From NCBI RefSeq assembly GCF_006345805.1, contig NC_042998.1, positions 61,814,001-61,878,000 of the forward strand: DNA of 64,000 nt, written 5' to 3'. The position numbers were made by a program, and so were the translations under genes. The notes beneath the pieces are model-generated. The model saw only the letters and a program-made list of their open reading frames with translations. It ran no database searches and was not told where the DNA came from. Below, piece by piece: positions 14,985 through 62,307 of the stretch (position 1 is its first letter; each line of letters starts with the position of its first letter). This DNA comes from Octopus sinensis. Its lineage: Eukaryota.

Positions 14985-15804
14985 CATATACACACAACAT
15001 ATACATATATGTGTTTGTATTTAAATACGCACACACGTGTGTGTGTGTGATCAATAGAATAAGTACTAGGCTTACAAAGAGTAAATCATGGGGTGGATTT
15101 GTTCGACTAAGGGCGGTGCTCCAGCATGGCCACTGTGAAATGACTGAAACAAGTAAAAGAAATCTATATTGGTATGTATGCGTCTGTGAAGGTGCATAGC
15201 TTAGTGGTTAGGGTGTTTGGCTCACAATTGTAAGGTTGTGAGTTCGATTCCCAGTGACACATTGTGTCCTTGAGCAAGACGCTTTATTTCATGTTGCTCC
15301 AGTCCACTCAGCTGGCAAAAATGAGAACTACCTGTATTTCAAAGGGCCAGCCCTGTCACATTCTGTGTCATGCTTATTGTCCTTGAAAACAGCACTAAAG
15401 GTACGCATGTTTACGGAGTACTCAGCCACTTGCACATAAATTCCACAAGCAGGCTGTTCCATTGATCAGACCAACTGAAACCTTATCGTCGTAACCGACA
15501 AAGTTCTACTACAGTTGATGCATCCATCTACGCATGTATAAATACTTAAGTTTGTATACACGTGTATATATATATATGTATGTGTGTGTGTACGTGCGTA
15601 TGTGTGTATGTATGTATGTATGTATGTATGTATGCATGCATGCATGTATGTATGTATGTATATAGTTAAAGGGAGGAGAATTTCGATTATCTCCACTTTG
15701 TAATGCAAAATATATATATATAAAATAAAAGAAGGAAAATGCACACAGTTTATATAGTTTTAATATATTTTTTAATATATTTTATAAGTGTAAGAGTATT
15801 GTGT

Positions 15805-15840
15805 CTGTCGACCGGTTTCACTTTCGCTAATCATGATACT
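15805..15840 (-). ncRNA. Minimal hammerhead-like motif (A3-U8 variant)
   Basis: Minus strand reads TATC-ATGATTA-GC gaaa GT-GAAAC-CGGTC-GACA. Stem I is imperfect. Confidence 0.5.
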
Positions 15841-16100
15841 GAAATTATTGTAATTTCGTATTTTCTGAAGATTTTGGTCCATGTTCTTGTAAGGAAGTTT
15901 GTGAATGAATCACAAACATACATACATACATACATACATACATACATAAATACATGCATGCATACATACATACATATATACATACATGTATGCATACATA
16001 CATACATACACACATACATACATACATACATACATACATACATACATACATACACACACACACATACATACATACATACATACATACATACATACATACA

Positions 16101-16132
<32 letters not shown>

Positions 16133-16354
16133 CACACATGTACATACATACTTTCAGAAACTGTTATGCTATAGTATTGGGACCTCAATATGCGTCTTGA
16201 TTAAAATCTACAGTGTCTCTGTATTAACTATACATCGTTTTAAATCAGGTTCTTTTCAGTTTATTGACCCCTTTCACTAATCGCTTTGCACATGAAATAT
16301 ATTTTCCATATAACTGCAAAACATTTATCCATATATTTACTACATATGTGTTTT

Positions 16355-16411
<57 letters not shown>

Positions 16412-16567
16412 GTATGTATATGTATGTATGTTGTATGTATGTATGTATATATATATATATATATATACAAAATTAGAAAATGGAGAAACATACTTATCTA
16501 GCAGTATATTGGATATATGTTATCCCATGGTGGGTTGAATTTTCAACCCCTATCTCATTTTATAACC

Positions 16568-16625
<58 letters not shown>

Positions 16626-16679
16626 TGTATGTATGTATGTATGTATGTATAAGGATGAAAAGAAACACACGAGTTGATA

Positions 16680-18250
16680 TATATGAAAAAACAAGTCAAG
16701 ATAGAAGAAGAAGAAGAAGAAGAAGAAGAAGAAGAAGAAGAAGAAGAAGAGAAGAAGAAGACGAAGAAGAAGAAGAAGAAGAAGAAGAAGAAGAAGAAGA
16801 AGAAGAAGAAGAAGAAGAAGAAGAAGAAGAAGAAGAAGAAGAAGAAGAAGAAGAAGAAGAAGAAGAAGAAGAATGAATGAATGAAAGTAGTGAGGTGTTA
16901 AATGACTTAAAGTTGGCACGCTGTGGACTACAGCAGTGATTGGGGCTGCTTTTTAATGAATTCTTAGGAATGTAATATTTTCGTGTGTATTTGTGCTATT
17001 CCAAGGCCGAGTAGGGTATGTCGTTTGTCGTAGAGGCGTTCAGAAGGGGCCTGTATTTTGTAATAAAGAGAGCTTACTTAACAATTCGTTGGCTCCAAGT
17101 TGCATCGTCCCTGAATTGGTAGAGGGGAAAAATCCTGAAGCTTGGAGTTTTGTCGTTGGCGCAAATGTCTATGTGTTGGCTGAATGCTATTTTTCTGTTT
17201 TGGGGAATTTTTATCTGGGATCTGTGCAGGGCCATTCTTTGACGTAGACTATTTTTTGTTTGGCCTATGTATTGCTCTTGACATCCAGAGCAGGTTAATG
17301 TGCATATCAGGTTCTCCGAAATACATGTGAAGTTGCTTTTCACTGTGAAACGTTGTCCCTGTTTGAAGAAGAACTCTGATCCCTCAATTAGAAAATCGCA
17401 TATCCCACAATTGGGTCTTCCACATATTTTTACTGTCGGCTTCTGTGTTGTTGAGCGTATTCGGGCTTTTTTTAGGAGACTTTTCATAGATTTGGGCTGT
17501 CTCTTGATTTTTATGATAGTATGTGTTTGGAGGATTAAGTTCATTCTGTGGTCCTTTTTTAGCAGGGGTATGTTTTGGAGGATGGTGTCGAAGGCTTCAT
17601 TGTTAAGAGGGTTGTGTGTGGAGATGTATGGTAAGGCTTTCGGTTGTAAATTTTTCTTTAATTTGGGATGTCTGAGTTCCTGGATATTGAGTTGAAGGGC
17701 ACGTTGAATGCATATGTCAATTAGTGAAGGTGGGTAGTTCCTGGTGATGAGTGTATCTTTTGATTCATGTAGTCGTGTGTCTCTGGCGTTTGCATTAGAA
17801 ACTATAGTACATATCCTTTTTGCTAGATTGAAGGGGATATTCATTCTGGTGTGTCTGGGGTGGCATGAATTGAATGGTAGATATTGCTTGGAATCTGTAG
17901 GCTTATAGTATATATCTGTTTCTATTACGTTATTAAATTTCTTAATGAGGATGTCGAGGAAGGGGAGTTGTTGCTGGCTATATTCCATCGTGAATTGGAT
18001 GTTTACGTCCAGTCCATTTAAAAATGCTCACCGACAAAGAATATGACTATATGACCAATTTCACAAGTAAAACCAGCCAATTCTAAGATATCCCCAAATA
18101 TTCTTTTAAAAATTTTTTTCTTTTAATTTTTCTAAATTTAACTATTTAATTGTTACAGTTGAAAAAGTCTCAATGACTGAAACCGGTACTGAAATGTTCT
18201 TTATAAAATTATTTTAGCATTTTCTATCTTGACTTGTTTTCTTCATATAT
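16680..18250 (-). mobile_element. 5'-truncated Penelope-like element (RT C-terminus + GIY-YIG endonuclease) with inverted termini
   Basis: ORF 17988-17074 contains LPFLDILI, YYKPTDSKQYL..SCHP, CxxxxCxxC and LTCSGCQEQYIGQT. The frame continues past a premature stop into ALFITKYRPLLN. TTCTATCTTGACTTGTTTT at ~18221 is inverted at ~16687-16705. Confidence 0.9.
18156..18191 (+). ncRNA. Minimal hammerhead (U3-A8 variant) in a Penelope terminal repeat
   Basis: CAG-TTGAAAA-AGTC tcaat GACT-GAAAC-CGGTA-CTG, with palindromic ACCGGT stem III. It sits directly beside a Penelope RT/GIY-YIG ORF. Confidence 0.7.
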
Positions 18251-18251
18251 A

Positions 18252-18287
<36 letters not shown>

Positions 18288-26290: not shown

Positions 26291-26880
26291 AGCCTACCTT
26301 TTCTCTGCAATAAATGTATTACTAAAAGAAACTATAAAAATAATAGCTATACAAGACATAAATGATTATTTTCCAGTCATAATGTAGCAGAAACAATATT
26401 TTATTTTTATCTTATAATTATTTATTTGGTTTTGTCCCATTATATCGTAGTTGTTATTGTTATTGTTGATGAAGTGTCTCTCACCGAAACGTTAAAATTC
26501 TATTTTATTCTTACGATTTTTGAAGTTATCTAAATTTGTGACATTCACACCTCTTTTCTTTCTTTCCTATTCGTTGTGCAGCCTCACTGACATAGCCTTT
26601 TCAAATACATATACTGACAATCATCGAGCTTGTGCTTGTGGTTCTTTTATAGTGTTCTAGGTCTTTTTGTTCTTGCGGGTTTTCTGGATTGTTCTTGTTA
26701 TTCTTGAGGTTCATGTGATTCTACTTTATTTACTTTTTTGTATTTATTCTTGATTTTCTTTTGTTTGTTTTTTTTTTATTTATATGTCCCGGCGCCACGC
26801 TCGCTGCACGTTTGTGGAACAAACAAACAAATATAAACTACCAAACTCGCATCATCATCATCAGCAGCAGCAACAATAAT

Positions 26881-26923
<43 letters not shown>

Positions 26924-27167
26924 CTAACATTATAACTACCACCAACATCGCCATTATTTTCTTCACTCAGTCAACATTATCACCAGCATCAACATTATCA
27001 ACTTCATCCTCGACATCGTCATCTCATCATTATCATCACCGACACCATCATCATCACCATCATCGATATCACCATTATCGTCATCATTACAATCACCAAC
27101 ATCATCAGCCACCAGATGAAATCGAACGAAATCAAATGAAATCCGATCGTCAAAGCCAGCCAGAGCC

Positions 27168-27649
27168 ATGACGTCACTGTATTCCGTCGACGACAATCAC
27201 CCGTCCACGTTAATTATGTCATTATGTCAAAACAAGTCTTTACTGACGATGATGGACTACGGCGAAACGAGCAACAGCACAAACAGCAACCACAACAGCA
27301 ACAACAGCAACTGCATGAACAACAACCACACCAGCATCAACAACAGCAACAGCGACAACAACACCAGCGCTAACAGCAGCAACAACAACAACAGCAACAA
27401 CAGTAGCAACAACAGACTTGAAATGATTATTGTGCCGAGCATCTACGCCGTCGCCATTGTCGGCGGATGTATTGCTAATGGCGCTTTAATTACTCTTCTT
27501 TGTAAAAATCGCAGACAGAAATACAACAGCACAGGAATCCTGGTGCTCAATCTAGCCATTGCCGATTTGCTATTTCTTCTATTCTGGGTACCATTCCATA
27601 CGATTATCTACACTATGTCCATATGGCCGTTCGGAGATTTCATGTGCAG
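27168..27649 (+). CDS. Class A GPCR, galanin/allatostatin-A receptor-like, coding exon 1 (N-terminus, TM1, TM2, ECL1)
   Basis: Reads ...GGCIANGALITLL...NSTGILVLNLAIADLLFLLFWVPFHTIIYTMSIWPFGDFMC, with the LAxAD and WPFG-x3-C motifs. Donor AG|GTTAGT at 27649/27650, phase 2. The start ATG is uncertain because downstream in-frame ATGs exist. Confidence 0.92.
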
Positions 27650-28317
27650 GTTAGTGGCAACAGATATATTTTTGTTGTTGTTGTTCTTCTTCTTGTTATT
27701 ATTATCGTCGTCGTCATCAGCATCATCATCATTGTCATAATTACTATTGATGTTGGTAAGACGGCGAACTGGCAGAACCGTTCACATATCGGACGTAATG
27801 CTTAGCGGCATTTCGTCCGTCTTTTTGCTCTGAGTCCAAATCGCGCCGAGGTCGACTTTGCCTTTCATCATTAAAATAAGTACCAACTTCAGATAAAATA
27901 AGTACCAGCTGAACACTAGGGTCGATTTAATCGATTAGCCCCTCCCCCACAAAAAATTCAAGGCCTTGTTCCTATCGTAGAAAGGATTATTATTATTAAT
28001 ATTGAGTTAGCGAACTGGCAGACTTGTTAGAGCGTCAGACAAACTGCTTCGCGGCATTTCTTCGGACTCTACCTTCTTACATAGCTAGGTATATACCCTT
28101 CCGTCTTCTCTACCTCCCTCCCTCTCTCCCTACCTACCTACTTACCTACCGACCAGCATACTTATCTTCCTGTTCACCTATATTCCTCCCCCCTCCCTAC
28201 ATAACTACTCATCTCTACTGAGCTTCTGTCCGTCTTTGTTAAGCATGCTTCTGCATATGTATTTGCAGGTTTAAGCCAGATTTTTTCTGTAAAGACAGTC
28301 AGTTATTAAATCTCTAA

Positions 28318-32260: not shown

Positions 32261-33151
32261 CGTTTACAAAGTACGCGGAGATGATTCATTTATCACTGAT
32301 TCATTTATCACTGCTTCTTATTTCTTTTTTTTTTTTAACCAAATCTCTTGATAAACAAGGACAGATGTACTATAGTGGTAGATCGTGAGTAGAATCATTG
32401 AACCGGAATTGAAAGATTAGTAAAGAGACTGTGAAAATGCGGGTCCCGTAGCATATTCCACTCTTGCTACTAGATTAATCCGCCTCTCCAAACAGCTTTA
32501 TTAGATACTTTTAGTGTAGATATTAAACCGAAATCTATGCGCGGAATTTTGTCAATGAACAGGCCGTGGTCTCAAAGCGACGAAAATATTTTGACAAATT
32601 AAATTTAAATGTTGAAGTGAATCTAACGGTTTTTGTGTGTTTTTAAATGGCTTATAAACACCTTCCACGCTGCAGTTGTTTTTGTTTCAGCACACAATCT
32701 CAGATCAGGTTACTTGCTATGCAAGTATATCTCCGTAATATGACGGCAACGTTAACAAGATTTTGAAATTTACGTATTTAGTCGGAAAGTTTGATTTTTA
32801 ACTCTAACCCTAGCATTTAATATGTTTATAATCTTAACGTCTAATTTTTATTATCTTAATGTTTAATCGAAAATGAAAGCATTTCTCTCCTTTACGATAG
32901 AGTTTCGCGTGTGTAATACAGGGAGTTGAAAAACTTTAATTAACTATAATTATCCATTAGTAGGCAAAACCTCTCATGGGATGTGTTTAAAATCTGAGAA
33001 CAACAAAGATAACTTCAATGAATTAAGTTGACCGAAACCATTATACAGTATGATATTGCAGAACGGGCATGGGTGCTTCTTTAAAACCATCTGATGAAAG
33101 TAATTAACATGTTTCAGAGTTATTAAATCTCCTCAGTGAATTATATTCTAT

Positions 33152-33312: not shown

Positions 33313-33490
33313 TCGAAAAATACCTTAGGAGTGAGAACTCAGGTTCGAAATTTCCCCAGGACACCTGATGAAAGCTAGAGGGTATATCAGCCGAAACGTG
33401 TTAACAACAAACAAGATGAGGACAAATATCCGTCGAATGTAAATAATGTAAATAATGTACATAATTCCTCATCTCTTAAATATAGAACTG
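33152..33490 (+). mobile_element. tRNA-headed SINE-like element with a hammerhead-containing tail
   Basis: A-box-like TGGCGTAATGG and B-box-like GAGTTCGATTCC, then an (AAC)n(AAT)n linker, then GACAC-CTGATGA...AGCC-GAAAC-GTGTT (33360-33402). A headless copy is at 31696-31890. Confidence 0.7.
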
Positions 33491-33593: not shown

Positions 33594-33741
33594 GTGTGTG
33601 CGCGCGCGCGCGTATGTGTGTGTTATAAAATATCAATACTGTTCAGGAAGGGCTCCAGGTGTCGCTCATGGCCTTTGGTAAAGGCATGAACCACACCACT
33701 ACAAATATCACCTTTTCTGTGTGCAAATGAATTTATTATTC

Positions 33742-33801
<60 letters not shown>

Positions 33802-33847
33802 TTGTTGTTGTGTTGTTGTTGTTGTTGTGATGATGATGATGATGATG

Positions 33848-33881
<34 letters not shown>

Positions 33882-33941
33882 GGATGATGATGATGATGAT
33901 TGCTTTTCTTTCCCTCAACTTTTTTTTCTTTTAATTTCCAG

Positions 33942-34692
33942 ATTTATCCACTACATGCAGTTCTCTAGTATGTTCGCCAACGTCTTCACACTGACCGCCA
34001 TGGCAGTCAACCGTTACGTCGCCATACGTTTCCCGATTTGGACGAGGCTCCGTCGTAACCACAAAGATGTCGTCATTATCAGTCTAGTCATTTGGATTGT
34101 GGCTCTTTGCCTCGGCATTCCATCGTCCCTTATCTACACTACTGTGGAATATCAAGGAAACTTTTACTGCACAGACTCCTTTCAAGATAAACGCCATTTA
34201 AGGCCGACATTTTTCCTTCTCAATTTCTTAATCGGTTACGTAATTCCACTGAGTACTATTCTGATTCTTAGCACCCTCACTGTATGTAATATGTGGAACT
34301 CAACCAATATGGAAGGCATAAACGCTGCTGAATCTCTTCGCAACAAACGTAGAGCTACGAAAATCGTAATATCTCTGGTTTTAGTATTTGCCTGTATGTG
34401 GTTTCCTTACCATTTGTTTTGGATATGGGTGAACTATTTCCATGACAGCTTCGAATGGTCGTATGCATTCTATTACTTCCAAGTATTTGCTTATTTGTTA
34501 GCTTTTACGAATTCTGCTTTAAATCCATTGGTCTACGCGTTCTGCTCGGAAACTTTCCGAAAGAAATTGTGCATTTGGTCGAAACGCAAGCAAGATCATT
34601 CGTTCCTGTCTCATTCGAGATTAACTAATCATTCTATTCGATCAATCCCTCAAAATACTCAAGAAATTCCAATGGACAAAATATCTCTGTAA
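33942..34692 (+). CDS. Same GPCR, coding exon 2 (TM3-TM7, C-tail)
   Basis: Pyrimidine tract and TTCCAG acceptor end at 33941, and the phase matches exon 1 (MC-R-FIHYMQ). Motifs: TLTAMAVNRYVAI, TM4 W, GYVIP, CMWFPYH, NSALNPLVY. Stop TAA ends at 34692. Spliced CDS is 1233 nt (410 aa). Confidence 0.95.
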
Positions 34693-34959: not shown

Positions 34960-35351
34960 AATGAAGGAAAGAAAATGGAAAGTTGAGATAATAATAATTA
35001 TCTATTATTTAAAAAGAAAGGTAATCTCTACTTCTTGCAGCCGTTTCCATTAGTGCTCAATAAGAAAATTACAAATTTATGCTATAAATTTGCATCTATA
35101 TGTTATGAGCATAATTTCACCATAGAAAAAGAGTCTGCTTGCATGAACAGAAAGGTCAGCGTGTAATATCTAAAGTTATATCATTTTCTCTGATGAAATT
35201 GTGCTCATAACATATAAATGCAAATTTATAGCATAAATTTGTAAGCTTCTTATTGAGCACTAATGGAAACGGTTGTAAGAAGTAAAGATTACCTGTTTTT
35301 TAATGATAAAAAAAATATTATTATTTTAACTCTCCATTTTCTTTCCTTCAT
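34960..35351. repeat. Inverted repeat with ~170-bp arms
   Basis: ATGAAGGAAAGAAAATGG...TAGAAAA / TTTTCTCTG...CCATTTTCTTTCCTTCAT, with a ~50-nt spacer. Confidence 0.9.
35185..35282 (+). ncRNA. Putative type I hammerhead ribozyme with long stem II
   Basis: Stem I TTTCT(35185-89)/AGAAG(35278-82). Core CTGATGA 35190-96. Stem II ATT-GTGCTCA...TGAGCAC-T-AAT. GAAAC 35266-70, then GGTT-GTA with predicted cut after 35277. The closing pair of stem II is a non-canonical A.G. Confidence 0.68.
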
Positions 35352-35587: not shown

Positions 35588-35809
35588 TAGTTTATTTTAA
35601 AGTTCCTACTCGCGTTTCACCATTATGGTTGTTTGGAGCTCTGCTATGGAAGTTTCAAATGTATATAAAAGCCCAACCACGCCGAATCCAAGGGATCGTG
35701 TTTCCTGACGAGCCAGCGTGACTGAGCATCTACATACATTTGGAATTCCTAGCATAAGGCTCCAAACAGCCAAATGGTGAAACGCGCGTAGGAACTTTAA
35801 TATAAACTA
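35588..35809. repeat. Inverted repeat with ~95-bp arms
   Basis: TAAAGTTCCTACTCGCGTTTCACCATT / AATGGTGAAACGCGCGTAGGAACTTTA. Confidence 0.88.
35700..35795 (+). ncRNA. Putative type I hammerhead ribozyme with ~59-nt loop II
   Basis: Stem I GTTTC/GGAAC. Core CTGACGA 35705-11. Stem II GCCA(35712-15)/TGGT(35775-78). GAAAC 35779-83, palindromic stem III ACGCGCGT, GTA cut site after 35790. Confidence 0.72.
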
Positions 35810-37692: not shown

Positions 37693-40355
37693 TTGTACAA
37701 GTGTTGGGTTAAACTATTCATTCACAGCTGTTTAGACTGGAGCAACGTGAAATGAAGTATCTTGATCAAAGACACAACACCCTGCCCGGTATAGGAACTG
37801 AACCCCAAATTTTATGATTTTGAGCCGAACACTCCTAACCACTCGGCCACGTGCTACTTGTATTTTATATGTAATTAATTTCATTTAACTTTACAGGATT
37901 ACCTCCCCTGCCTTTGTTGATTATAATTACCCATTAACATAATGTAACATTTTTTTTTTGTTTCCTTCATAACTGGTGAAACTTTTATTAATATTTTTGG
38001 TGGTTTCCGACCTCATGTATGTTATCGTACACTACATTATTATAATTTTATTATTTTATACTTTTTCCATGTCAAACATTTTTTACAGATTTTCTTAAAA
38101 CTAACTCTATTAAAAAAAGAAAAAACATTGTGATCTTAACTATTCAAAGACTTCATCTACAAGAAAACAACAGTTAATATATTTAATGAACTAAGCATTA
38201 GAAACGTAATAAAAGATAATTATGCGATCAAGACAATATTAATACAATGTCCTGCATGAAAGGCAAGATATGTTATTCATACAAATAATCTAGTGAGCGT
38301 TGAAAATCTAATCAAAAATAATTATATGACAAGGAAAAAGCAATATTAAGTCAATGGCTAATGTTATAATTAATACAGTAATTATAACAATTCTAGATAA
38401 GTTTTTGCGTTAATGGATCTGCTCCTCGATGCATAAACTTTACCATCATTGTCGAAGTAGTGATAAGCTAATCACGTGCCAAATTTAAAATGCTGAACAA
38501 GGGACGGTTTAAATAATTAACGTATTTTAATATTAACTTACTGGCGTATGTTAGAACATAACTCCAAGGTCGATAACTCTGCTTTCTTCAGTTTTGTTTA
38601 CTTGACAATGAAAGATCAAAATTCGACCAGTTGAATACAACAAAAGTGGTTTCCTGGTTTACGGATCAAATGTGTGTGTGTGTTACGAAGATATCACTCT
38701 CTTGTCTCTACACACATAAATACCCTTATCCACCAACAAGTCTACTAAATTTACAGGCCATCTACAAGGCGGTAAACTACCCACCAAATTAGGTTCTGAT
38801 TATTCGATCTCGTTACAGAATACAATAACAGTCCTCTGTGGTCAAGCTACAGAATTATTATTGCTCTCCATATTTCCAATATATTCTGTACTAACAGCAA
38901 ATATGTCATCTCTCTCTTACAAAAGATTCTTCTCCGAAACGTTAGACTGCTCACTTTCTTCACTGCAGTCTATACCATTCAACTTTTTGAATATTTCGTA
39001 CCAACTTTTCTCCACACAGACCATCACTAGTATTCTCGGATTCTGCTGTTTTACTGCAAAATTTTTAGGGTTTTAGCGAGGTGGAAAAGGTACATGTGGT
39101 CAAGGCCCTTATAATATTATAATCTTCTGATTTAATAAGAGTCGTGATAAAGAACATCAAGAAATACGAAGACAAGTTAAGATTGACTGCCACATTAATT
39201 TCGCCGCTAAAAGAAAATACAGCAACTGGTATACATGAATAATTCTGTTTATCAAAATACATAGGTCCAGCGTGTTTCTTGAAGATGAAGATTTTCGCGA
39301 GAAAAACATAAAACTGGCGATACGAATCTCTCTTGACAATACCCTCTTCACAGTAAATGCACAGCGGAATAAAACTGCTCTCTCTCTCATGTCGAAGATC
39401 CGATCTCTACCGTGACTACCAACCTCACTGAAGAATACGCAGAAAAGCTTCCTCTAAATAGCTGATGATGACGCGCTTAGCTAGTGGACAGTCCGCGTAA
39501 AGCTAGGACTCGACCGTCACGTGATAAGCCTTAATGTAGGTACCTAAAGGTAAAAAGTCAAAATGTGTGTACCTAAAGGTAAAGAGACAAAATATGGGTA
39601 GCTAAAGGTAAAGAGTGAACGTGCTTGCTACCGGTTCTTATATTATGTTCTTACATTATCAACTAGGAAGATTTGACAGGAATCTTTTCGCCATGAACAT
39701 TAGGAATGTAAGCGAAGTGACTTCTAGCTGGATAATAAACTATACTAGAACAGTGTAAAGTAAAATAAAAACGCTGGTTCCTATTTAACGAAGTCGAAAA
39801 CACCTCTACTGGGCCTAAATTTTTTTGTTTTTTAAGGACAGAAATATTAATCATGTGACATTGATATCCTGAAATGAAAAGCTAACAGCTGATGATTAAA
39901 AGGAAATCGTAGTTTCCGCAAGCGTGGAAGTTCCTTTTTACTATATAATGCAGCAACAGGGATTGTAAATGAATCCTTTAACGAAAGTTATACGAGACTC
40001 TTGATGGAGTTTGATGCAAACATGACATTTATGATGGTTTCTGAACTTGTAGGCTTTGTTTACTTATCGAATTTGTTAAACATGTAACAATAACACCATG
40101 AACGTCGGATTCATGGTTTGGAAAGAGACTTGTGGTTGTGATACAGCTATGTAAAATTTTAATAAATTCAACCTGAGGTTATTGTCATTGTTCTTATTGT
40201 TGTCAGCGTCATCAATATTGTTGATGTTGTTTTGCTATTGTTGTTTAATTTCAGTTTAAAAGCTCAAACCCGGAGCAAATTAATCATCCGAGGCATTCCT
40301 GGCCATATATTGAACGATCATTTTCCATTCACAGAGCAGAAATAGAATGGTTTCA

Positions 40356-40577
40356 AGGCGGCGAGCTGGCAGAAACATTAGCACGCTGGGCAAAATGCTT
40401 AGCGGTATTTCGTCTGCCGCTACGTTCTGAGTTCAAATTCCGCCGAGGTCAACTTTGCCTTTCATCCTTTCGGGGTCGATAAAGTAAGTACCAGTTACGC
40501 ACTGGAGTCGATGTAATCGACTTAATATCCCTTTGTCTGTCCCCTCTGTTTAGCCCTTTGTAGGCAATAAAGAAATA
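40356..40577 (+). mobile_element. tRNA-derived SINE family B, MetaSINE-like core (>10 copies, e.g. 2515-2710, 13440-13630, 27760-27990, 40630-40848, 43955-44168, 55995-56205, 56385-56588)
   Basis: GAGTTCAAATTCC B box, central GACTTTGCCTTTCATCCTTTCGGGGTCGATAAA..AGTACC-type motif, and a 16-bp TSD AGAAATAGAATGGTTT at this copy. Confidence 0.85.
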
Positions 40578-43500
40578 AGAAATAGAATGGTTTGTTTGTC
40601 TTTTAATTGTAAAATAAGATCCCTTTTCTTATTTCTTTACTGCCCACAAGGGGCTACACACAGAGGGGACAGGCAAAGGGATTAAGTCGATTATATCGAC
40701 CCCAATGCATAACTGGTACTTATTTAATCGACCCCGAAAGGATGAAAGGCAAAGTCGACCTCGGCGGGATTTGAACTCAGAAAGTAGCGGCAGACGAAAT
40801 ACCGCTAAACATATCGCCCGGCGTGCTAACGTTTCTGCCATCTTGCCTCCTTTTCTTTTAGATGTGGTAACTTTTTAACCAAATTACACAATTTCGGGTA
40901 TTTTTCCTGAAATGGTTAGCTTTCTCAGTATTCTCCGCAAAATATAGTTTTTATGTGCTTCAGAATAGGGTTGCAGGAGAAGGAAGTCACACTTTAATGT
41001 TATCACAGTAGTTTGCAGGCTCGTTTCTGAATTTCAAAGTCAGAAAGAAGGATTTGTCCATTTCTCCTATGTTGTATGGTTCAACTGTGGAGGCGCAATA
41101 GCCTAGTGGTTACGGTAGCGGACTCGCGGTAGTAGGATCGCGGTTTCGATTCCCAGACTGGGCGTTGTGAGTATTTATTGAGCGAAAACAATGTTCCAAG
41201 AGGCTCTGGCTGCGGATGGTGGCGAACTCTGCTGTACTCTTTCACCACAACTTTCTTCCTGTTTCTGTTGTACCTCTATTTCAAAGGGCCAGCCTTGTCA
41301 CAGGCTTTTTCTCTGTCACGCTGAATCTCCCCGAGAACTACGTTAAGGGTACACATGTCTGTAGAGTACTCAGCCACTTGCACGTTAATTTCATGAGCAG
41401 GCTATTCCGTTGATTGGATCAACTAGAACCCTCGTTGCCGTAACTGACGGAGTGCCATACTACTATAGTTCAACTATAACTTGTTCATTCTGACGGCGTA
41501 TTGTAGAAGCACCAAATAGTCTCTGGTGCTTTTTACTTCTTTGAACATTTCTCAAATTAAGCAACACTGCCCTTCTTTCATGGCTTCGTTTTTTGTTTTT
41601 TTTCTGCGTTCTCGATATTCTGCTTGCTTTTCATTGTTCGTTTCTTTTGCCGCATTCAACTCCCCTCTCTTTCTCTCATTCTTTCTCCCCCTCTCTCTCT
41701 TTCTCTCTCGTTCCATATGTTCGGCTCACTATTTCCCTTCCATATCTTCGTATATTGATTTTCTCTTTTAGACTGTATTCTGCACTTTCGGTTGCAATTA
41801 TTCTGGCCTTTCTTCTTCGTCAATTTTGTTTAGAACGCAACTTTTTTTTTTTTTTTTGTCTTAGTCTAAAATGTCTCGTGTTGCTTCAAATTTCCATCTT
41901 GTTCCAAAATAAAAGTTTAAATAGGATGAGAAAATATAATTAAAAGTTTAAAACTTCGAAGGAATTTTAAAAAAAGAAAAGAAAAGATACCTTATAAAAG
42001 ACTGGTAATACTTTCCTTACAACAGATAAAAATAATAGTTCGAACGGAGTTGCTTCCCTTCAAAATCGTCCGTATCGTCTGCTTCCAGTCTTCCATTTTG
42101 TTCCATAACGAAGACTTGTTTAAATGTTAAATATAAATAAAATTTACAGAAGTGTAAACAGACAACGGAAACTAATAAAAGATACCAAGAAACTGTAATC
42201 CTTTCCATACTGTCTGCATGATTAACTACGACAGATAAAAATAATAATCGAAGAAGTTTGAGCAAAGTACCAGTGGAAATTGTACGTTTTTAAAATTTTC
42301 TAATTTGTATTTTGAAACATAAATTTATATAACTTCATGAAAACTGTTTCATTGATTGTCAAAGATTTTTAGGGCAATAAGATTGAATTTATATTAAAGA
42401 AAATTGTTTCTCCTTTCCATTGCCGAAAGTGTTAATTATGGTTTACTAATTTTTCTACCATTTGTAAGGCTCAGGTATGGCTGTGTGGTTAAGCAGTTTG
42501 TTTCCCAACAATTTTTCAGATTCAATGTCACCGCACACTAGTCTCAAGCTGTGATCAAAGTATTGTGTAGATTTGGTAGCTAGAAAATGAAGGTTCATAA
42601 TGTACATACATGTGTGTATCACTTTGTTTTGACATTATGTGATGATTGGCAATGTGTGTCACTGTTATATATTCAGAGTCTCTTATATCCAATCTTCTGT
42701 GAAAAACCTGTCTTGCAGTGAGGAAATATTACCGGCTGAGAAACTGGTGAGTGTTGGCAACAGGAATTGTATACATCCCTAGAATATCTGCCTCGTCAAA
42801 TTCCATCTGAACCATGCAAGTACAGAAACGTGGATGTTAAAAAAAATGATGTCCTTTACTCTTTTACTTGTTTCAGTCATTTGACTGTGGCCATGCTAAA
42901 GTACCACCTTTAGTCACGCAAATCGACCCCAAGACTTATTCTTTGTAAGTCTGTACTTATTCCATCGGTCTCTTTTGCCGAACTGCTAAGTTATGGTGAT
43001 GTAAGCACACAACCATAAGCTGTCAAGCAATGTTGGAGGGGACAAACACACACACACACACACAAACATATACACACACATACATATATATGTATAGATA
43101 TATACAATGGGCTTCTTTCAGTTTCCGTCGACCAAATCCACTCACAAAGCTTTGGTCTGCCTGAGGCTATAGAAGACACTTGCCTAAGGTGCCATACAAT
43201 GGGACTGAACCCGGAACCATGTGGTTCGTAAGCAAACTACTTACCACCAAGCCACTCCTATGATGTGGACTAAAAAAATAATGAAGTGGATGAAATATGC
43301 AGCTTTCTCATTTCCTTTCATATAAGAAAATGTGTATCTTCTGTGACGTCTGCCTGTATTTTTTTCTATTTTTCTTCAATTACAAATGGGAAATATGTTC
43401 CCTTATCTAATTTTCTTTTTTTATTTTCAATTATATTAGGAAAAAGTGTTCCCTTATTCAATTACAATAGGGAAATATGCTCTCCCCACCTCCTACATAC

Positions 43501-44540
43501 CACATGCTCAAAACATTATAAAAGATGAAAAAAAATATTTTCACTATTTACAAATGTTTTAATGATCTTAAAATGAATTTTTTTGTAATTTTATTTACAA
43601 ATGATTTAAATGTATGTTTGTTTTGTTTCTTTCTTGTTTGTTTTGTCTTTCTTTAAAACTTTCAATTGAAAAAAAAAATTGATACAATAAAGAACTTTTA
43701 ACCTTTAACCCTGTTGGTTAAAGACAGCTGACAAGTTTTATCAAATAAAAGTTTTAAAAAGCAAGGAAGAAAAATCAGCACCATATTAAATAAAGGACAA
43801 ATATTGGGAAATGATTCCTTTCCTCTTGTTAACACAAAAGAGTTCTATACCCAAAAAGATTGATAAAGTGTAGTTTGACCAATTAAAAACTACAAATGGA
43901 TGTGGAATAATAAACCAGTTCAATCCCAAATATTTGGCAGATTATAAATATTGGTTTCAAATTTTGACACAAGGTCATTGATTTGGGGGAGCGGGGTAAA
44001 GTCATTTACATCAACCCCAGTGCACAACTGGTACTTATTTTATTGACCCTGAAAGGATGAGAGGTGAAATCAACCTTGGCAGAATTTGAACCCAGAACGT
44101 AGAGACAAGCAAAATACTGCAAAGCATTTCGCCTGGCATGCTAACAGTTCTGCCAGCTCACTGCCTTAAATATCATAAGTGTTACACTACTGGAGTTAGT
44201 AAAATTACAAAGAGTTTGTTTTGTTTTTGCTTTTGTTGTTTTTTTTTATGCTAGATGATATTTCAACAATTACCAAAACTTTTCAACTTAAGCTGAATTT
44301 AATTTCCTTTCAAATAATTTTTGAAATATCTTTTTTAAATATATTTCTGCTTCAAAATGAAGCCAATTGGAATTATGAAAATAAAATGCAAAATATAAGA
44401 ATTATTTTGAAATTGGTTAAATATGAAATAGTAACCCCATAGTAACTTTTATTACTATTTTTCTGTTTTTGTTTCAGATTTTAACACTAAAATTCTGTTA
44501 TAGTCGCAAAGAGTTTAAAAAATATACAAAACAAAAAACT

Positions 44541-44900
44541 ATTGAAGATGCACTTGGGTTTTAAAAGAAATTTTGGTTTATTATTAATTTCATTTTTAAT
44601 TTATCAAAAAACCATATCAGCTTCAACAATTTTCTATTTTTCAATGGTACATAAATATATGCACAAGAAAATACATCAAAGCAATAAAACAGGCTCAAAT
44701 ATCAAATGTTCAAAGTATTGAGTATGTTTTATTGGTATGAAACTTTTTTGTACATTCTCTTTCTTTTACATTTTTATCTTATTTTATATTTATTTACCAT
44801 TGAAAAGCTAACATTGTTGAAACCAGTATAGTATTTTGATAGATTAAAAAAGATCTTTAAAAAAAACCAAATCTGTTTTAAAACCTGGTGCATTTTCAAC
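44541..44900. repeat. Old inverted repeat whose arms carry hammerhead-like relics
   Basis: ATGCAC..GGTTTTAAAA / TTTTAAAACC..GTGCAT. The right arm has ACCA-TTGAAAA...GAAAC-CAGTA-TAGT at 44796-44832. Confidence 0.6.
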
Positions 44901-51250: not shown

Positions 51251-52912
51251 ATCATCATCATTTAGCATCCGCTTTCCATGCTAGCATGGGTTGGACGGGT
51301 CAACTGGGGTCTGTGAAGCTGGAAGGCTTCGTCAGGCCCAGTCAGATCTGGCAGTGTTTCTACAACTGGATGCCCTTCCTAACGCCAACCACTCTGCGAG
51401 TGTAGTGGGTGTTTTTTACGTGCCACCTGCACAGGTGCCAGACAGAGCTGGCAAACGGCCATGAACGGATGGTGCTTTTACGTGTCACCGGCACAGGGCC
51501 AGGCGATGCTGGCAACGGACACGAACGGACGGTGCTTTTACGTGTCACCGGCATGGGGGCCAGCCGAGGCTGGCAACGGACACGAACGGATGGTGCTTTT
51601 ACGTGCCACCGACACGGTTGCCAGACAGAGCTGGCACACGGCCACGAACGGACGGTGCTTTTACGTGTCACCGGCACGGGGGCCAGCCGAGGCTGGCAAC
51701 GGACACGAACAGATGGTGCTTTTACATGCCACCGACACGGGGCCAGACAGAGCTGGCAAACGGCCACGAACGGACGGTGCTTTTACGTGTCACCGGCACG
51801 GGGCCAGGCAAGGCTGGCAGCGAACACGAACGGATGGTGCTTTTACGTGCCACTGACACGGGGGCCAGACAGAGCTGGCAAACGGCCACGAGCGAATGGT
51901 GCTTTTACATATCACCGACACGGGTGCCAGACGAGGCTGACAGCGGACACGAACGGATGGGTCACTTAACCCCTTATTTCTGATATATGATTTGATTTTG
52001 ATTGTTCTCACTGGTCTTGCCGGGTCTTCTGACGCACAGCATACTTCCATAGGTCTCGGTCTCTGGTCATTTCCTTGGTGAGACGTAGAGTTCGAAGGTC
52101 GTGCTTCACCACCTCGACCCAGGTTTTCCTGGGTCTACCTCTTCCACAGGTCCCCTCAACTGCCAGGGTGTGGCACTTTTTCACACACCTATCTTCATCC
52201 ATTCTCGCCACATGACCATACCAGCGCAATCGTCTCTCTTGCACACAACATCTGATGCCTCTTAGGTCCAACTTTTCTCTCAAGGTACTTACACTCTGTC
52301 GACTATGAACACTGACATTACACATCCAACGGAGCATACTAGCTTCATTTCTCGCGAGCTTACGCATGTCCTCAGCAGTCACGGCCCATGTTTCACTGCC
52401 ATGTAGCATGGCTGTTCGTACACATGCATCATACAGTCTGCCTTTTACTCTGAGCGAGAGGCCTTTAGTCACCAACAGAGGTAAGAGCTCCCTAAACTTT
52501 GCCCAGGCTATTCTTACTCGAGCCGTTACACTTTCAGCACACCCACCCCCACTACTGACTTGGTCACCAAGATAACGGAAGCTATCAACTACTACTAGTT
52601 TTTCCCCCTGGAAAGTGACGGAAGTTGTTTTCTGCAGATTTTCAGAGGTTAATGCTCCCGAGCATCTGCCACATACAAAAACCATCTTCCTAGTTAGCCT
52701 TCCTATGACATTGCTGCACCTCTTATGTGTCTATAGCTTACACTTGGTGCATCTTATAGAGTTTCTACCTACACCTTTTCTACAGATCGAGCAGGGCCAT
52801 CTACCTGAAGGCGTTTGTGATTTGTCTACCTTCCTACTTATTACGACTTTGGTTTTAGCTAGGTTGACTCTAAGGCCCTTCGATTCTAAACCTTGCTTCC
52901 ACACCTGAAACT
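51251..52912 (-). mobile_element. RTE LINE 3' part (second family)
   Basis: FRYLG, HGSETW, RLRWYGHV and RGRPRKTW motifs. The 3' UTR holds a ~60-bp tandem array and a (TGA)n tail. Confidence 0.9.
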
Positions 52913-57033: not shown

Positions 57034-57542
57034 GAAATCGATCAATGGAAATTGCAGATGTGTTACCAGTGCCGGTGGCATGTTGAAACTCTACTTGTGA
57101 AGACCTGTTGAGGCAAGTGAGGATCAGAATCGAAATCGATCAATGGAAATTGCAGATGTGTTACCAGTGCCGGTGGCTAGTAAGAGAACCTTCCGTTTCG
57201 CGACCGTTGCCAGCGCCGCCCCGACTGGCCTCGTGCCGGTGGCACGTAAAAAGCACCATCCGTTTGTGTCCGTTGCCAGCCTCGACCGGCCCTCGTGCCG
57301 GTGGCACATAAAAAGCACCATCCGTTCGTGGCCGTTTGCCAGCTCTGTCTGGCACCTGTGCGGGTGGCACGTAAAAAGCACCCACTACACTCACGGAGTG
57401 GTTGGCGTTAGGAAGGGCATCTAGCCGTTGAAACACTGCCAGATTTGACTGGGCCTGATGAAGCCTTCTGGCTTCACAGACCCCAGTAGAACCGTCCAAC
57501 CCATGCTAGCATGGAAAAACGGACGCTAAACTGATGATGATG

Positions 57543-57591
<49 letters not shown>

Positions 57592-58139
57592 GATATATAT
57601 ATATATATCTATGTATGTATAACTTTGTGTGTGTGTGTGTGTGTGTCTGTCTGTCCTCCCTCCATCACTTGACAACCAATGTTGGTGTGTTTATGTTCCC
57701 ATAATTTAGCAGTTCAGCAGAAGAGACCAACAGAATAAATACTAGGCTTACAAAGAATAAGTCCTGGGGTCAATTTGTTTGACTAATGGCAGTGCTCCAG
57801 CATGGCCACAGTCAAATGACTGAAACAAGTAAAAGAATAATATTTCATTATCACCATTATGGTCATCGTTATTGCTGTCATCAACACCCCACCGTTTTAT
57901 ATCTGCTCTTTGCAGGCTGCAAGGGTTGAATAAAACTTACTGAGGCACAAGTCTACAGCTGGATGTCCTCTCTGTCACCAGCTCTTATCTTTTATCTTTT
58001 GTAGCCCAAAGTACCATGCAGTGATGGAACCCGAAATCATACAGTTGCAAAGTAAACTGCGTGGATTTTAAATACAAATATAAAAGAGCAATACAGGGGA
58101 CTTTCACACTAGAAAAGAAAGCAGATGTATGATAATGAG

Positions 58140-59372
58140 GATTTCAGAACAACTTCTGTCACATTCCAAGGAGAAAAACTAGAAGTAGTTGGCAGCTTCC
58201 ATTACCTAGGTGACCAAGTCAGTAGCAGGGGTGGATGCTCTGAACGAGTAGCTGCTAGAATAAGAATAGCCTGGGCAAAGTTCAGAGAGCTCCTACCCCT
58301 GCTAGTGACAAAGGGCCTCTCGCTCAGAGAAAAAAGGTAGACTGCATGACGTGTATGAACAGCCATGCTACATGGCAGTGAAGCATAGGCCATGACTGCT
58401 GAGGACATGCGTAAGCTTGTATTGAATGAAGCCAGTATGCTCCGATGGATGTGTAATGTCAGTGTGCATACACAACAGAGTGCAGGCACCTTGAGAGAAA
58501 AGTTGGACCTAAGAAGCATCAGATGTGGTGTGCAAGAGAGACAACTGTGCTGGTATGGTCAGGTGGGGCAAATGGATGAGGACAGCTGTGTGAAAAAGTG
58601 TCACACCCTAGCAGTTAAGAGAATCTGTGGAAGAGGTAGACCAAGGAAGACCTGGGATGAGGTGGTGAAGCACGGCCTTCAAACATTGGGCCTCAGCGAG
58701 GCAATGACTAGTGACCAAGAGTTTTGGAAATATGCTGTGCTTGAGAAGACCTGGCAAGCCAAGTGAGACCATAACCTGTGGCCTATGCCAGCAGTGTAAC
58801 CAGCCTACTTATGCGTACCTTTCTTTCGTTGAACACTAAACTTTGCTTGCGAAGACCTGTTAAGGCAAGTGAAATCACAATCAAAATCAAATTCGCTGAT
58901 GTGACTGAAGACAGCACTGCCTGACTGGCACCCATGCCAGGGGAACGTTAAAAGCACCATTCAAGCGCGATCGTTGCCAAGTCCACTGACTGGCTCCTGT
59001 GCCAGTGACACATAAAAGGCACCATTCGAGTGTGATCGTTACCAGCATTACCTTACTGGCACGTGAAAAACAACATTCGAGCAAGGTTGTTGCCAGTGCC
59101 ACTGGACTGGCTCCTGTACAGGTGGCACATAAAAACCACCATTTGAGCATGGCCATCGCCAGTACTGCCTGACTGGCCCTCATGCCAGTGACACATAAAA
59201 GCTCCCACTACACTCTTGGAGTGGTTGGTGTTAGGAAGGGCATCCAGCTGTAGAAACTGCCAGATCAGATTGGAGCCTGGTGCAGCCATCTGGCTCACCA
59301 GTCCTCAGTCAAACTGTCCAACCCATGCCAGCATGGAAAGCAGACATTAAATGATGATAATGATGATGATGA
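58140..59372 (+). mobile_element. RTE LINE 3' part, diverged copy
   Basis: Same ORF motifs and 3' UTR as 51251-52912, in the opposite orientation. Confidence 0.88.
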
Positions 59373-61409: not shown

Positions 61410-62307
61410 CCGGGTAGAGGTTGGGGTCCACCAAGGTTCAGTCCTCAGCCCCCTCCTATTTATCATAGTCCTCCAGGCAATAACGGAAGAATTTAAGACA
61501 GGATGCCCCTGGGAGCTCCTCTATGCTGATGACCTTGCTCTAATTGCTGAGTCACTATCAGAACTGGAGGAGAAGTTTCAGGTGTGGAAACAAGGATTAG
61601 AATCGAAGGGCCTTAGAATCAACCTAGCCAAAACCAAAGTCCTAATAAGTAGGATGGTGGACCAACCACAAACGACTTCAGGTAGATGGCCCTGCTCAAT
61701 CTGTAAAAAAGGTGTAGGTAGAAACTCTATAAGGTGCACCAAGTGTAAGCTATGGACACATAAGAGGTGCAGCAACGTCAAAGGTAGGCTAACTGGGAAG
61801 ATAGTTTTCGTATGTGGCAGATGCTCAGGAGAAATAAACACTGGAAATGTGCAGAGACCAACTTCTACCACGTTCCAGGGAGACAAACTAGAAGTAGTTG
61901 ATAGCTTCCGCTACCTAGGAGACCAAGTTAGTAGCGGGGATGGGTGTGCTGAAAGTGTAACTGCTAGAGTAAGAATAGCCTGGGCAAAGTTTAGAGAGAC
62001 ATAAAAACACCATCCGAGCGTGGCCGTTCGCCAGCTTCGTCTGGCACCTGTGTCGGTGGCACATAAAAAACACCATCCGAGCGTGGCCGTTCGCCAGCCT
62101 CGTCTGGCACCTGTGTCGGTGGCACATAAAATCACCCACTACACTCTCGGAGTGGTTGGCGTTAGGAAGGGCATCCAGCTGTAGAAACACTGCCAGATCT
62201 GACTGGCCTGGTGCAGCCTTCGGGCTCCCCAGACCCCAGTTGAACCGTCCAACCCATGCTAGCATGGAAAGCGGACGTTAAATGATGATGATGATGATGA
62301 TGATGAT
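61408..62307 (+). mobile_element. RTE LINE fragment with internal deletion
   Basis: GVHQGSVLSPLLF, YADD, a Cys/His finger and FRYLG. It jumps to the 3' UTR at ~61997. Confidence 0.88.

Follow-up and report, generated by a model that had tools for sequence, protein, structure and literature searches.

Penelope-like elements (PLEs) of Octopus sinensis appear to carry type I hammerhead motifs in their pLTRs, organised in families whose 3-8 tertiary pair is U3-A8, A3-U8 or G3-C8. Selection likely keeps this pair for self-cutting, predicted to take place as a dimer; judged from sequence, this reading as a whole is given a probability of roughly two in three. The window, meaning the whole stretch of 64,000 nt that was analysed (NC_042998.1, positions 61,814,001 to 61,878,000), is microsatellite-rich and belongs to a 2.72-Gb genome. 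A first-pass annotation had listed several altered cores in it, and every one was found at its place. It had further proposed that double changes at positions 3 and 8 are family features selected for activity. The three double-change sites, 18159 and 44800 (both U3-A8) and 15834 on the minus strand (A3-U8), have the cores that prevail in three repeat families, not mutations of individual copies, and none of the three consensuses reverts to CUGANGA.

The 15805..18191 span comprises two separate insertions, each with (TA)n/(TATG)n flanks. The family A motif (18156..18191, plus strand) is composed of stem I (18156-58/18189-91), the core (18159-65), stem II (18166-78) and GAAA (18179-82); it reads CAG, UUGAAAA, a 4-bp stem II, GAAA, the ACCGGU palindrome, GUA and CUG, with a predicted cut after 18188. 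From 1,100 candidates, 40 were scored and 30 loci taken; U3-A8 occupies 31 of 32 family rows, window copy counted, and the remaining row is U3.G8. The family B motif (15807..15837, minus strand) has the core AUGAUUA at 15834-15828, a 2-bp stem II with a GAAA loop at 15827-15820, ACCGGU and GUC, the predicted cut falling between 15810 and 15809. In the window copy one stem I pair is gone (15837), and G.U replaces G-C at 10.1-11.1 (15820). The family B majority, with a 3-bp stem I, a 2-bp stem II closed by the GAAA loop and ACCGGU, gives a 31-mer with 25 exact genome matches against 0 for the control. A3-U8 is present in 33 of its 39 rows, some of them partial or duplicated, drawn from 869 candidates. 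Two runs labelled as other organisms gave 578 and 312 contigs; these show no difference above 5% at 15834 or 15829, and in them the drifted stem letters of the window copy are overwhelmingly replaced. Family C is represented by a decayed U3-A8 motif (44795..44833, plus strand; UUGAAAA at 44800) and by a second, inverted and more decayed copy (44610..44649, minus strand), also U3-A8 and with GAAA broken. Its U3-A8 majority stands at 29 of 32 rows, a figure that, as in the other two families, leans towards the window letters because the loci are the best matches to the window copies. The palindromic stem III attributed to these motifs is seen at 18159 and 15834 (ACCGGU) and at a further site, 26466 (AACGUU); the 44800 copy lacks it, having the non-palindromic ACCAGU where the family C majority has ACCGGU together with a 5-bp stem I.

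Apart from positions 3 and 8, the motif is complete: U4 G5 A6 N7, A9, G12 A13 A14, A15.1-U16.1 and H17 are present at 18159, at 15834 and in the majorities of families A, B and C. The literal C3 and G8 of CUGANGA are absent from the U3-A8, A3-U8 and G3-C8 family majorities, all of which have a Watson-Crick 3-8 pair. Three stems surround the core, and stems I and II have different paired sequences between families, a pattern of covariation. Position 17 stays a non-G in the families that were reached from the window by similarity. At the three double-change sites the family majorities, together with the excess over shuffled sequence, support the proposed selection for activity, a reading drawn from covariation; it does not extend to 26466 (26460..26500, plus strand), a single-copy UUGAUGA site with weak stems and an unpaired U3.G8. 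The suggestion that 26466 represents a family variant was rejected, as a DNA search returned only the site itself, a relaxed pattern found 2 sites genome-wide, and collinearity with the C3-G8 family F8 scored 49 against a shuffled maximum of 48, not clearly above shuffles. The site has probably decayed or arisen by chance, and it may be a worn member of a C3-G8 minimal-hammerhead family.

Shuffled sequence does not match as often as the window. The pattern ACCGGTTTC-N6-18-TNNTCA has 2 window matches against a shuffled mean of 0.01, and a structure-aware descriptor with positions 3 and 8 free has 4 against 0.16; in both cases the window count was reached in 0 of 100 shuffles. One of the 4 descriptor matches, at 17744 (G.G, antisense within the ORF described below), is probably due to chance, and 44800 and 26466 fail the descriptor because their stems are worn. 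A Watson-Crick 3-8 pair was present in 3 of 16 shuffled matches. No hammerhead was found in the best 150 of 253 Rfam matches, microsatellite matches filling those listed.

Other hammerhead-like sites and repeats are scattered through the window. The C3-G8 type I motif at 35700..35795 (plus strand; CUGACGA core at 35705) has a long loop II and a ACGCGCGU palindrome, and no relative of it was found among the loci sampled. It falls into a C3-G8 class with a loop II of 50-70 nt and palindromes of 6-8 nt that occurs at five further loci (L161, L220, L230, L264, L288) and has no link to the Neptune-type ORF used as query. Repeat family F9 is represented at 33361..33400 (33365, plus strand) by a decayed C3-G8 minimal hammerhead. 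Another decayed C3-G8 site, 33136 on the minus strand, is part of a stretch (33085-33145) that carries C3-G8 core halves on opposite strands (33091 plus, 33136 minus), the minus half with an ACAUGU palindrome; it looks like an inverted, decayed pLTR junction. The CUGACGA at 27243 was rejected as a hammerhead, having a 1-bp stem II and sitting in an open frame that resembles a GPCR exon. Two plus-strand open frames (27120-27740 and 33682-34692) are, by motif likeness, presumably related to neuropeptide-type GPCR exons. An inverted pair of short repeats (35010-35065, minus; 35240-35290, plus) is hammerhead-like, with UUGAGCA or UGAGCA followed by GAAACGG and pairing flanks; it breaks both the 3-8 pair and the NUH rule, and its relatives in locus L024 likewise form an inverted pair. 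SINE-like repeat tails at 42870-42917 (minus) and 57779-57835 (plus) have a hairpin followed by GAAAC that resembles stem II and GAAAC of family A, without the 5' core, and possibly derive from a PLE pLTR or else arose by chance. A 61-65-nt tandem repeat is joined to RTE-like LINE fragments (51414-51960, 57167-57382, 58921-59177 and 61999-62131), and 40355-40852 holds an inverted repeat of 228 nt with a 42-nt spacer and 86% complementarity, a related arm lying at 43999-44170.

The elements that carry the motifs of families A, B and C, which the first-pass annotation had not covered, are PLEs. The family A hammerhead of the window is kept solely in an inverted pLTR fragment (18095..18252, plus strand) with a (TA)n/(TATG)n end, which is 95% identical to the pLTR lying 3' of the ORF in sense orientation at three loci (L006, L026 and L027). 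At the inversion junction lies a 72-nt inverted RT fragment (18026..18097, plus strand), matching amino acids 176-199 of the L205 ORF at 92%. Next to it, a 5'-truncated family A ORF (17020..18021, minus strand) encodes the C-terminal part of RT, a CxxxxCxxC linker and a GIY-YIG endonuclease (EN). It is 88% identical to the 748-aa ORF at L205, in which Pfam recognises RVT_1 (E 5.5e-8) and GIY-YIG (E 2.7e-4, just under cut-off). The 3' UTR and tail of the element (16655..17019, minus strand) form a direct pLTR without the hammerhead stretch, the alignment to L006 jumping from 1203 to 1623. Family B has left a short pLTR fragment between microsatellites (15710..15912, minus strand); in its other copies a GIY-YIG ORF ends ~240-370 nt upstream of the hammerhead. 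In family C a sense ORF is found upstream of the motif at L106 and L109, and in families B and C and in a lineage with G-C and A-U pairs, related sense ORFs end ~160-880 nt before the motif. A single ORF with RT and, at its C-terminal end, GIY-YIG corresponds to an EN+ PLE, as do the pLTR hammerhead downstream of the ORF, the inverted truncated copy and the microsatellite flanks. The Zn-finger-like linker between RT and EN, CGRPNCGIC in both the window ORF and L205, fits the CX2-5CxxC linker described for the Neptune/Nematis clade (PMC8557442), and the host elements would accordingly be EN+ PLEs of that type.

The 3-8 pair is part of the active hammerhead fold (PMC3884650, PMC8495972), and a G8C change is rescued in part by C3G (PMC8495972, PMC11167929). 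The proposed acid is the 2'-OH of residue 8 (PMC6155905), and in the literature base 8 acts mainly through this group and its pairing with base 3. Because C3G rescues G8C and the acid is a 2'-OH, any Watson-Crick 3-8 pair could be serviceable in principle. Stem III forms solely as a dimer in prediction, and the stems of family B are short (2 bp in stem II, 3 bp in stem I). Cofolding joins two hammerheads through a 6-bp ACCGGU duplex (-8.3 kcal/mol) for the 18159 copy and for copies at L062, L301 and L102; at L232 part of the core is paired, and in 4 of the 9 copies (15834, 44800, 26466 and L250) the lowest-energy cofold is not a full hammerhead dimer. Dimer cleavage is itself a published model (PMC4209133, PMC6765202). 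Under the preferred reading, two copies would pair by the ACCGGU palindrome and so build stem III, and a helper protein together with dimer formation may make weaker pairs tolerable. Cleavage would then process tandem or inverted PLE transcripts, and may also process ~360-nt retrozyme-like repeats sharing the same machinery. Metazoan minimal hammerheads cleave poorly (PMC4209133), and those of PLEs are slow and can be protein-assisted (PMC4209133, PMC11167929).

The fold, including the 3-8 pair, might instead be maintained as a structure recognised by the PLE protein, for RNP assembly or as a template signal, with cleavage incidental or absent; this is judged unlikely. The hammerhead of the Anolis PLE needs protein to work, and insertion in vitro does not depend on it: cleavage-dead mutants still inserted, and no RNA ends were observed at the cut (PMC11167929). 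The octopus PLE families likewise show no pile-up of copy starts at the predicted cut in the sampled loci: starts within 12 nt of it number 1 in family A against the L006 reference and 0 against L205, 0 in F2, 1 in F3 and 3 in family B, bins past +50 being noise and two references extending into microsatellite. Protein recognition leaves less reason for preserving a pair that belongs to the active fold (PMC3884650, PMC8495972), or for the non-G that the window-derived families keep at position 17. In addition, 2 of ~21 segments of the retrozyme-like tandem repeats begin exactly at +1 from the cut; the two are U3-A8 carriers, and the hint of cleavage is weak and post hoc.

A relaxed-core scan extended the result to the whole genome and recovered all four Watson-Crick pairs as families, including G3-C8, which the first-pass annotation had not named. 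With the tail N6-18 GAAAC SS GT H, which defines the palindromic-stem-III (ACSSGU) class, and with reversed patterns as controls, there were 17,590 exact matches with any 3/8 pair (control 3,065). U-A accounted for 12,470 (control 206), A-U for at least 1,485 (275, narrower tail), G-C for 168 (108) and C-G for 235 (271); these counts are approximate because two cores can share one anchor. The four pairs together make up ~82% of the 17,590. The C-G count is not above its control, although it includes a real tandem family, and it does not show C3-G8 to be rare overall because C3-G8 hammerheads shaped otherwise (GAAACGUU, long loop II) exist outside the count. As had been foreseen, searches requiring CUGANGA would miss these families, since 235 of the 17,590 class matches are visible to them. 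Conservation of UGA, A9, GAAAC and H17 among pattern matches is not independent evidence because the patterns fixed these letters. In the first 90 de-duplicated matches on one contig (C1), with 3 and 8 free and the nearest core taken, 76 were paired: 61 U-A, 13 A-U, 1 C-G and 1 G-C. Among the 14 unpaired, three belong to a stemless repeat and two are one inverted pair of an otherwise U-A family. This stemless repeat, C3.U8-looking and recurrent at 4 loci, was rejected as a hammerhead family, being without stem I or II, and its rows remain in the tally. Every one of the ~10 hammerhead-shaped lineages in this unbiased sample has a paired majority; the G-C and C-G families were reached through searches aimed at those pairs.

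Close relatives can differ in their pair. Among loci from pair-specific searches, one cluster at >=78% identity mixes G-C (7) with A-U (7), and a ~360-nt tandem-repeat cluster at the same identity mixes C-G (8) with U-A (2). An unbiased search of the G-C/A-U lineage, with 8 free and 3 as A, G or U, gave 208 matches (control 0). A hand count of the first 100 found 60 A-U, 32 G-C, 2 A.C, 2 G.U, 2 U.C, 1 A.G and 1 G.G, against ~22 expected under independence for each of A.C and G.U. The 2x2 table gives a Fisher p of ~1e-20, with few events underlying the copies, and what the counts prove is the existence of two subfamilies, not of many events. The two forms occur in runs of three organism labels, where the shares of G>A at 3 and of C>T at 8 run in parallel (74/77%, 61/54% and 29/34% of depth, unphased). 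In a protein tree of ORF fragments (33 rows, reduced from 37 by dropping 3 long tips and the single A.C copy), the pair label requires 5 changes where the least possible is 2; a single A-U clade is rejected (p-AU 5.6e-68), and U-A is united in 0 of 200 bootstrap trees. With 3 of 30 inner branches starred and two long tips, this tree is poorly resolved at depth, and the number of independent switches is therefore uncertain; the estimate is four to six, each ending Watson-Crick and counting the C-G/U-A switch of the tandem repeats. For the G-C/A-U lineage, a DNA tree built from 37 of 43 rows (the other 6 overlapped too little) has G-C rows at its base, and switches inside the lineage are uncountable on it because truncated copies with unrelated flanks blur the tree. 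MAFFT alignment across families misaligned the core.

These patterns might also come from founder effects and AT-biased mutation, in which master elements drifted at 3 and 8 and a coincidental pairing was amplified by copy number, the ribozymes being dead. Such an origin is improbable. It would suit the ~35% G+C of the window, the fact that C-G to U-A and G-C to A-U each take two transitions towards A/T, the non-independence of copy counts and the weak deep tree. Moves among the U-A, A-U and G-C lineages require transversions at both sites, however, and the paired majority of all ~10 unbiased-sample lineages stands against the 3 of 16 shuffled matches that are paired; stems I and II covary as well. 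It is very improbable that A3 was fixed as part of an A3-U4-G5 start codon with U8 following: the Anolis PLE ORF does begin inside its hammerhead (PMC11167929), but in 46 of 51 A-U copies the frame opened by the AUG is closed within 30 codons, a test limited because copies soon run into microsatellites past the motif. Moreover, sister variants differ in frame with the length of their stem II, and GUG is found in sister copies. Selection on the 3-8 pair for self-cutting remains the preferred reading, with lineages crossing a transient wobble or mismatch before a new pair would be fixed. A bolder version, in which one PLE clade cycled position 3-8 through all four Watson-Crick pairs several times independently, all of them cutting in vivo as protein-assisted dimers, is offered tentatively, at somewhat less than even odds.

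The contribution of this window is the presence of all four pairs in one genome and the switching between close relatives. Lunse et al. 2017 reportedly treated PLE hammerhead variants directly. Natural U3-A8 is an accepted variant published in 2011 (PMC3088659) and reported in PLEs in 2014 (PMC4209133), where a dedicated U3-A8 descriptor is given. The minimal hammerheads of PLE pLTRs described there share with the octopus motifs the pLTR position, the type I order, a short palindromic stem III, inverted pairs and many families per genome, and the Schistosoma variant (Cervera and de la Peña 2014), with ~1,300 hits, shares U3-A8. In contrast to that work, the octopus also has A3-U8 and G3-C8 family majorities, U3-A8 dominates the ACSSGU class, stem II is 2-4 bp instead of 7-8, and the unpaired base after A9 is usually absent; the accessible part of the published alignment contains C3-G8, U3-A8 and one U3.G8 only (PMC4209133). 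Perreault et al. 2011 (PMC3088659) describe the natural covariation from C3-G8 to U3-A8, 2-bp stems II and weak palindromic stems III, all found here; in its accessible part that paper names U3-A8 alone at the 3-8 pair and has no repeated switching inside one retroelement clade. The Anolis Poseidon PLE (Frangieh et al. 2024, PMC11167929) has a hammerhead in its pLTR, and in tests of the 3-8 pair there cleavage was rescued in part by C3G/G8C. G3-C8, natural in the octopus, was met in the literature covered solely as such an engineered variant, and the octopus ORFs, unlike Poseidon, have the CxxxxCxxC linker of Neptune/Nematis type (PMC8557442). Full-text literature searches, whose reach falls short of establishing absence from print, turned up neither A3-U8 nor G3-C8 as a natural family. 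Non-LTR retrozymes (Cervera and de la Peña 2020, PMC7229834; bioRxiv 10.64898/2026.07.22.740005) are ~360-nt tandem repeats with a type I hammerhead, as are families F4 and F5, both outside the window; here U3-A8 stands throughout F5 (9 of 9), and F4 has both C3-G8 (8) and U3-A8 (2). The ~360-nt retrozyme-like repeats at L190, L155, L286, L250 and L277 are arranged with inversions like those of PLEs and have two preferred 3' ends.

PLE hammerheads are slow in vitro, and insertion did not require them in the single reconstituted system (PMC4209133, PMC11167929). That a tertiary pair linked to the active fold has been compensated repeatedly is evidence from evolution for the importance of the catalytic conformation. 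Sister subfamilies whose motifs are nearly the same apart from the pair (G-C and A-U, C-G and U-A) provide ready-made test constructs. Since a CUGANGA descriptor finds so small a part of the class, hammerhead censuses and statements that an element has no hammerhead need a paired N3-N8 descriptor. If the bolder version proves true, the cycle would include A3-U8 and G3-C8, which have mostly been known as weak mutants made in the laboratory; self-cleavage would be under selection in PLEs even though it is dispensable in vitro, and CUGANGA-based counts would miss almost all hammerheads of the ACSSGU class in such genomes.
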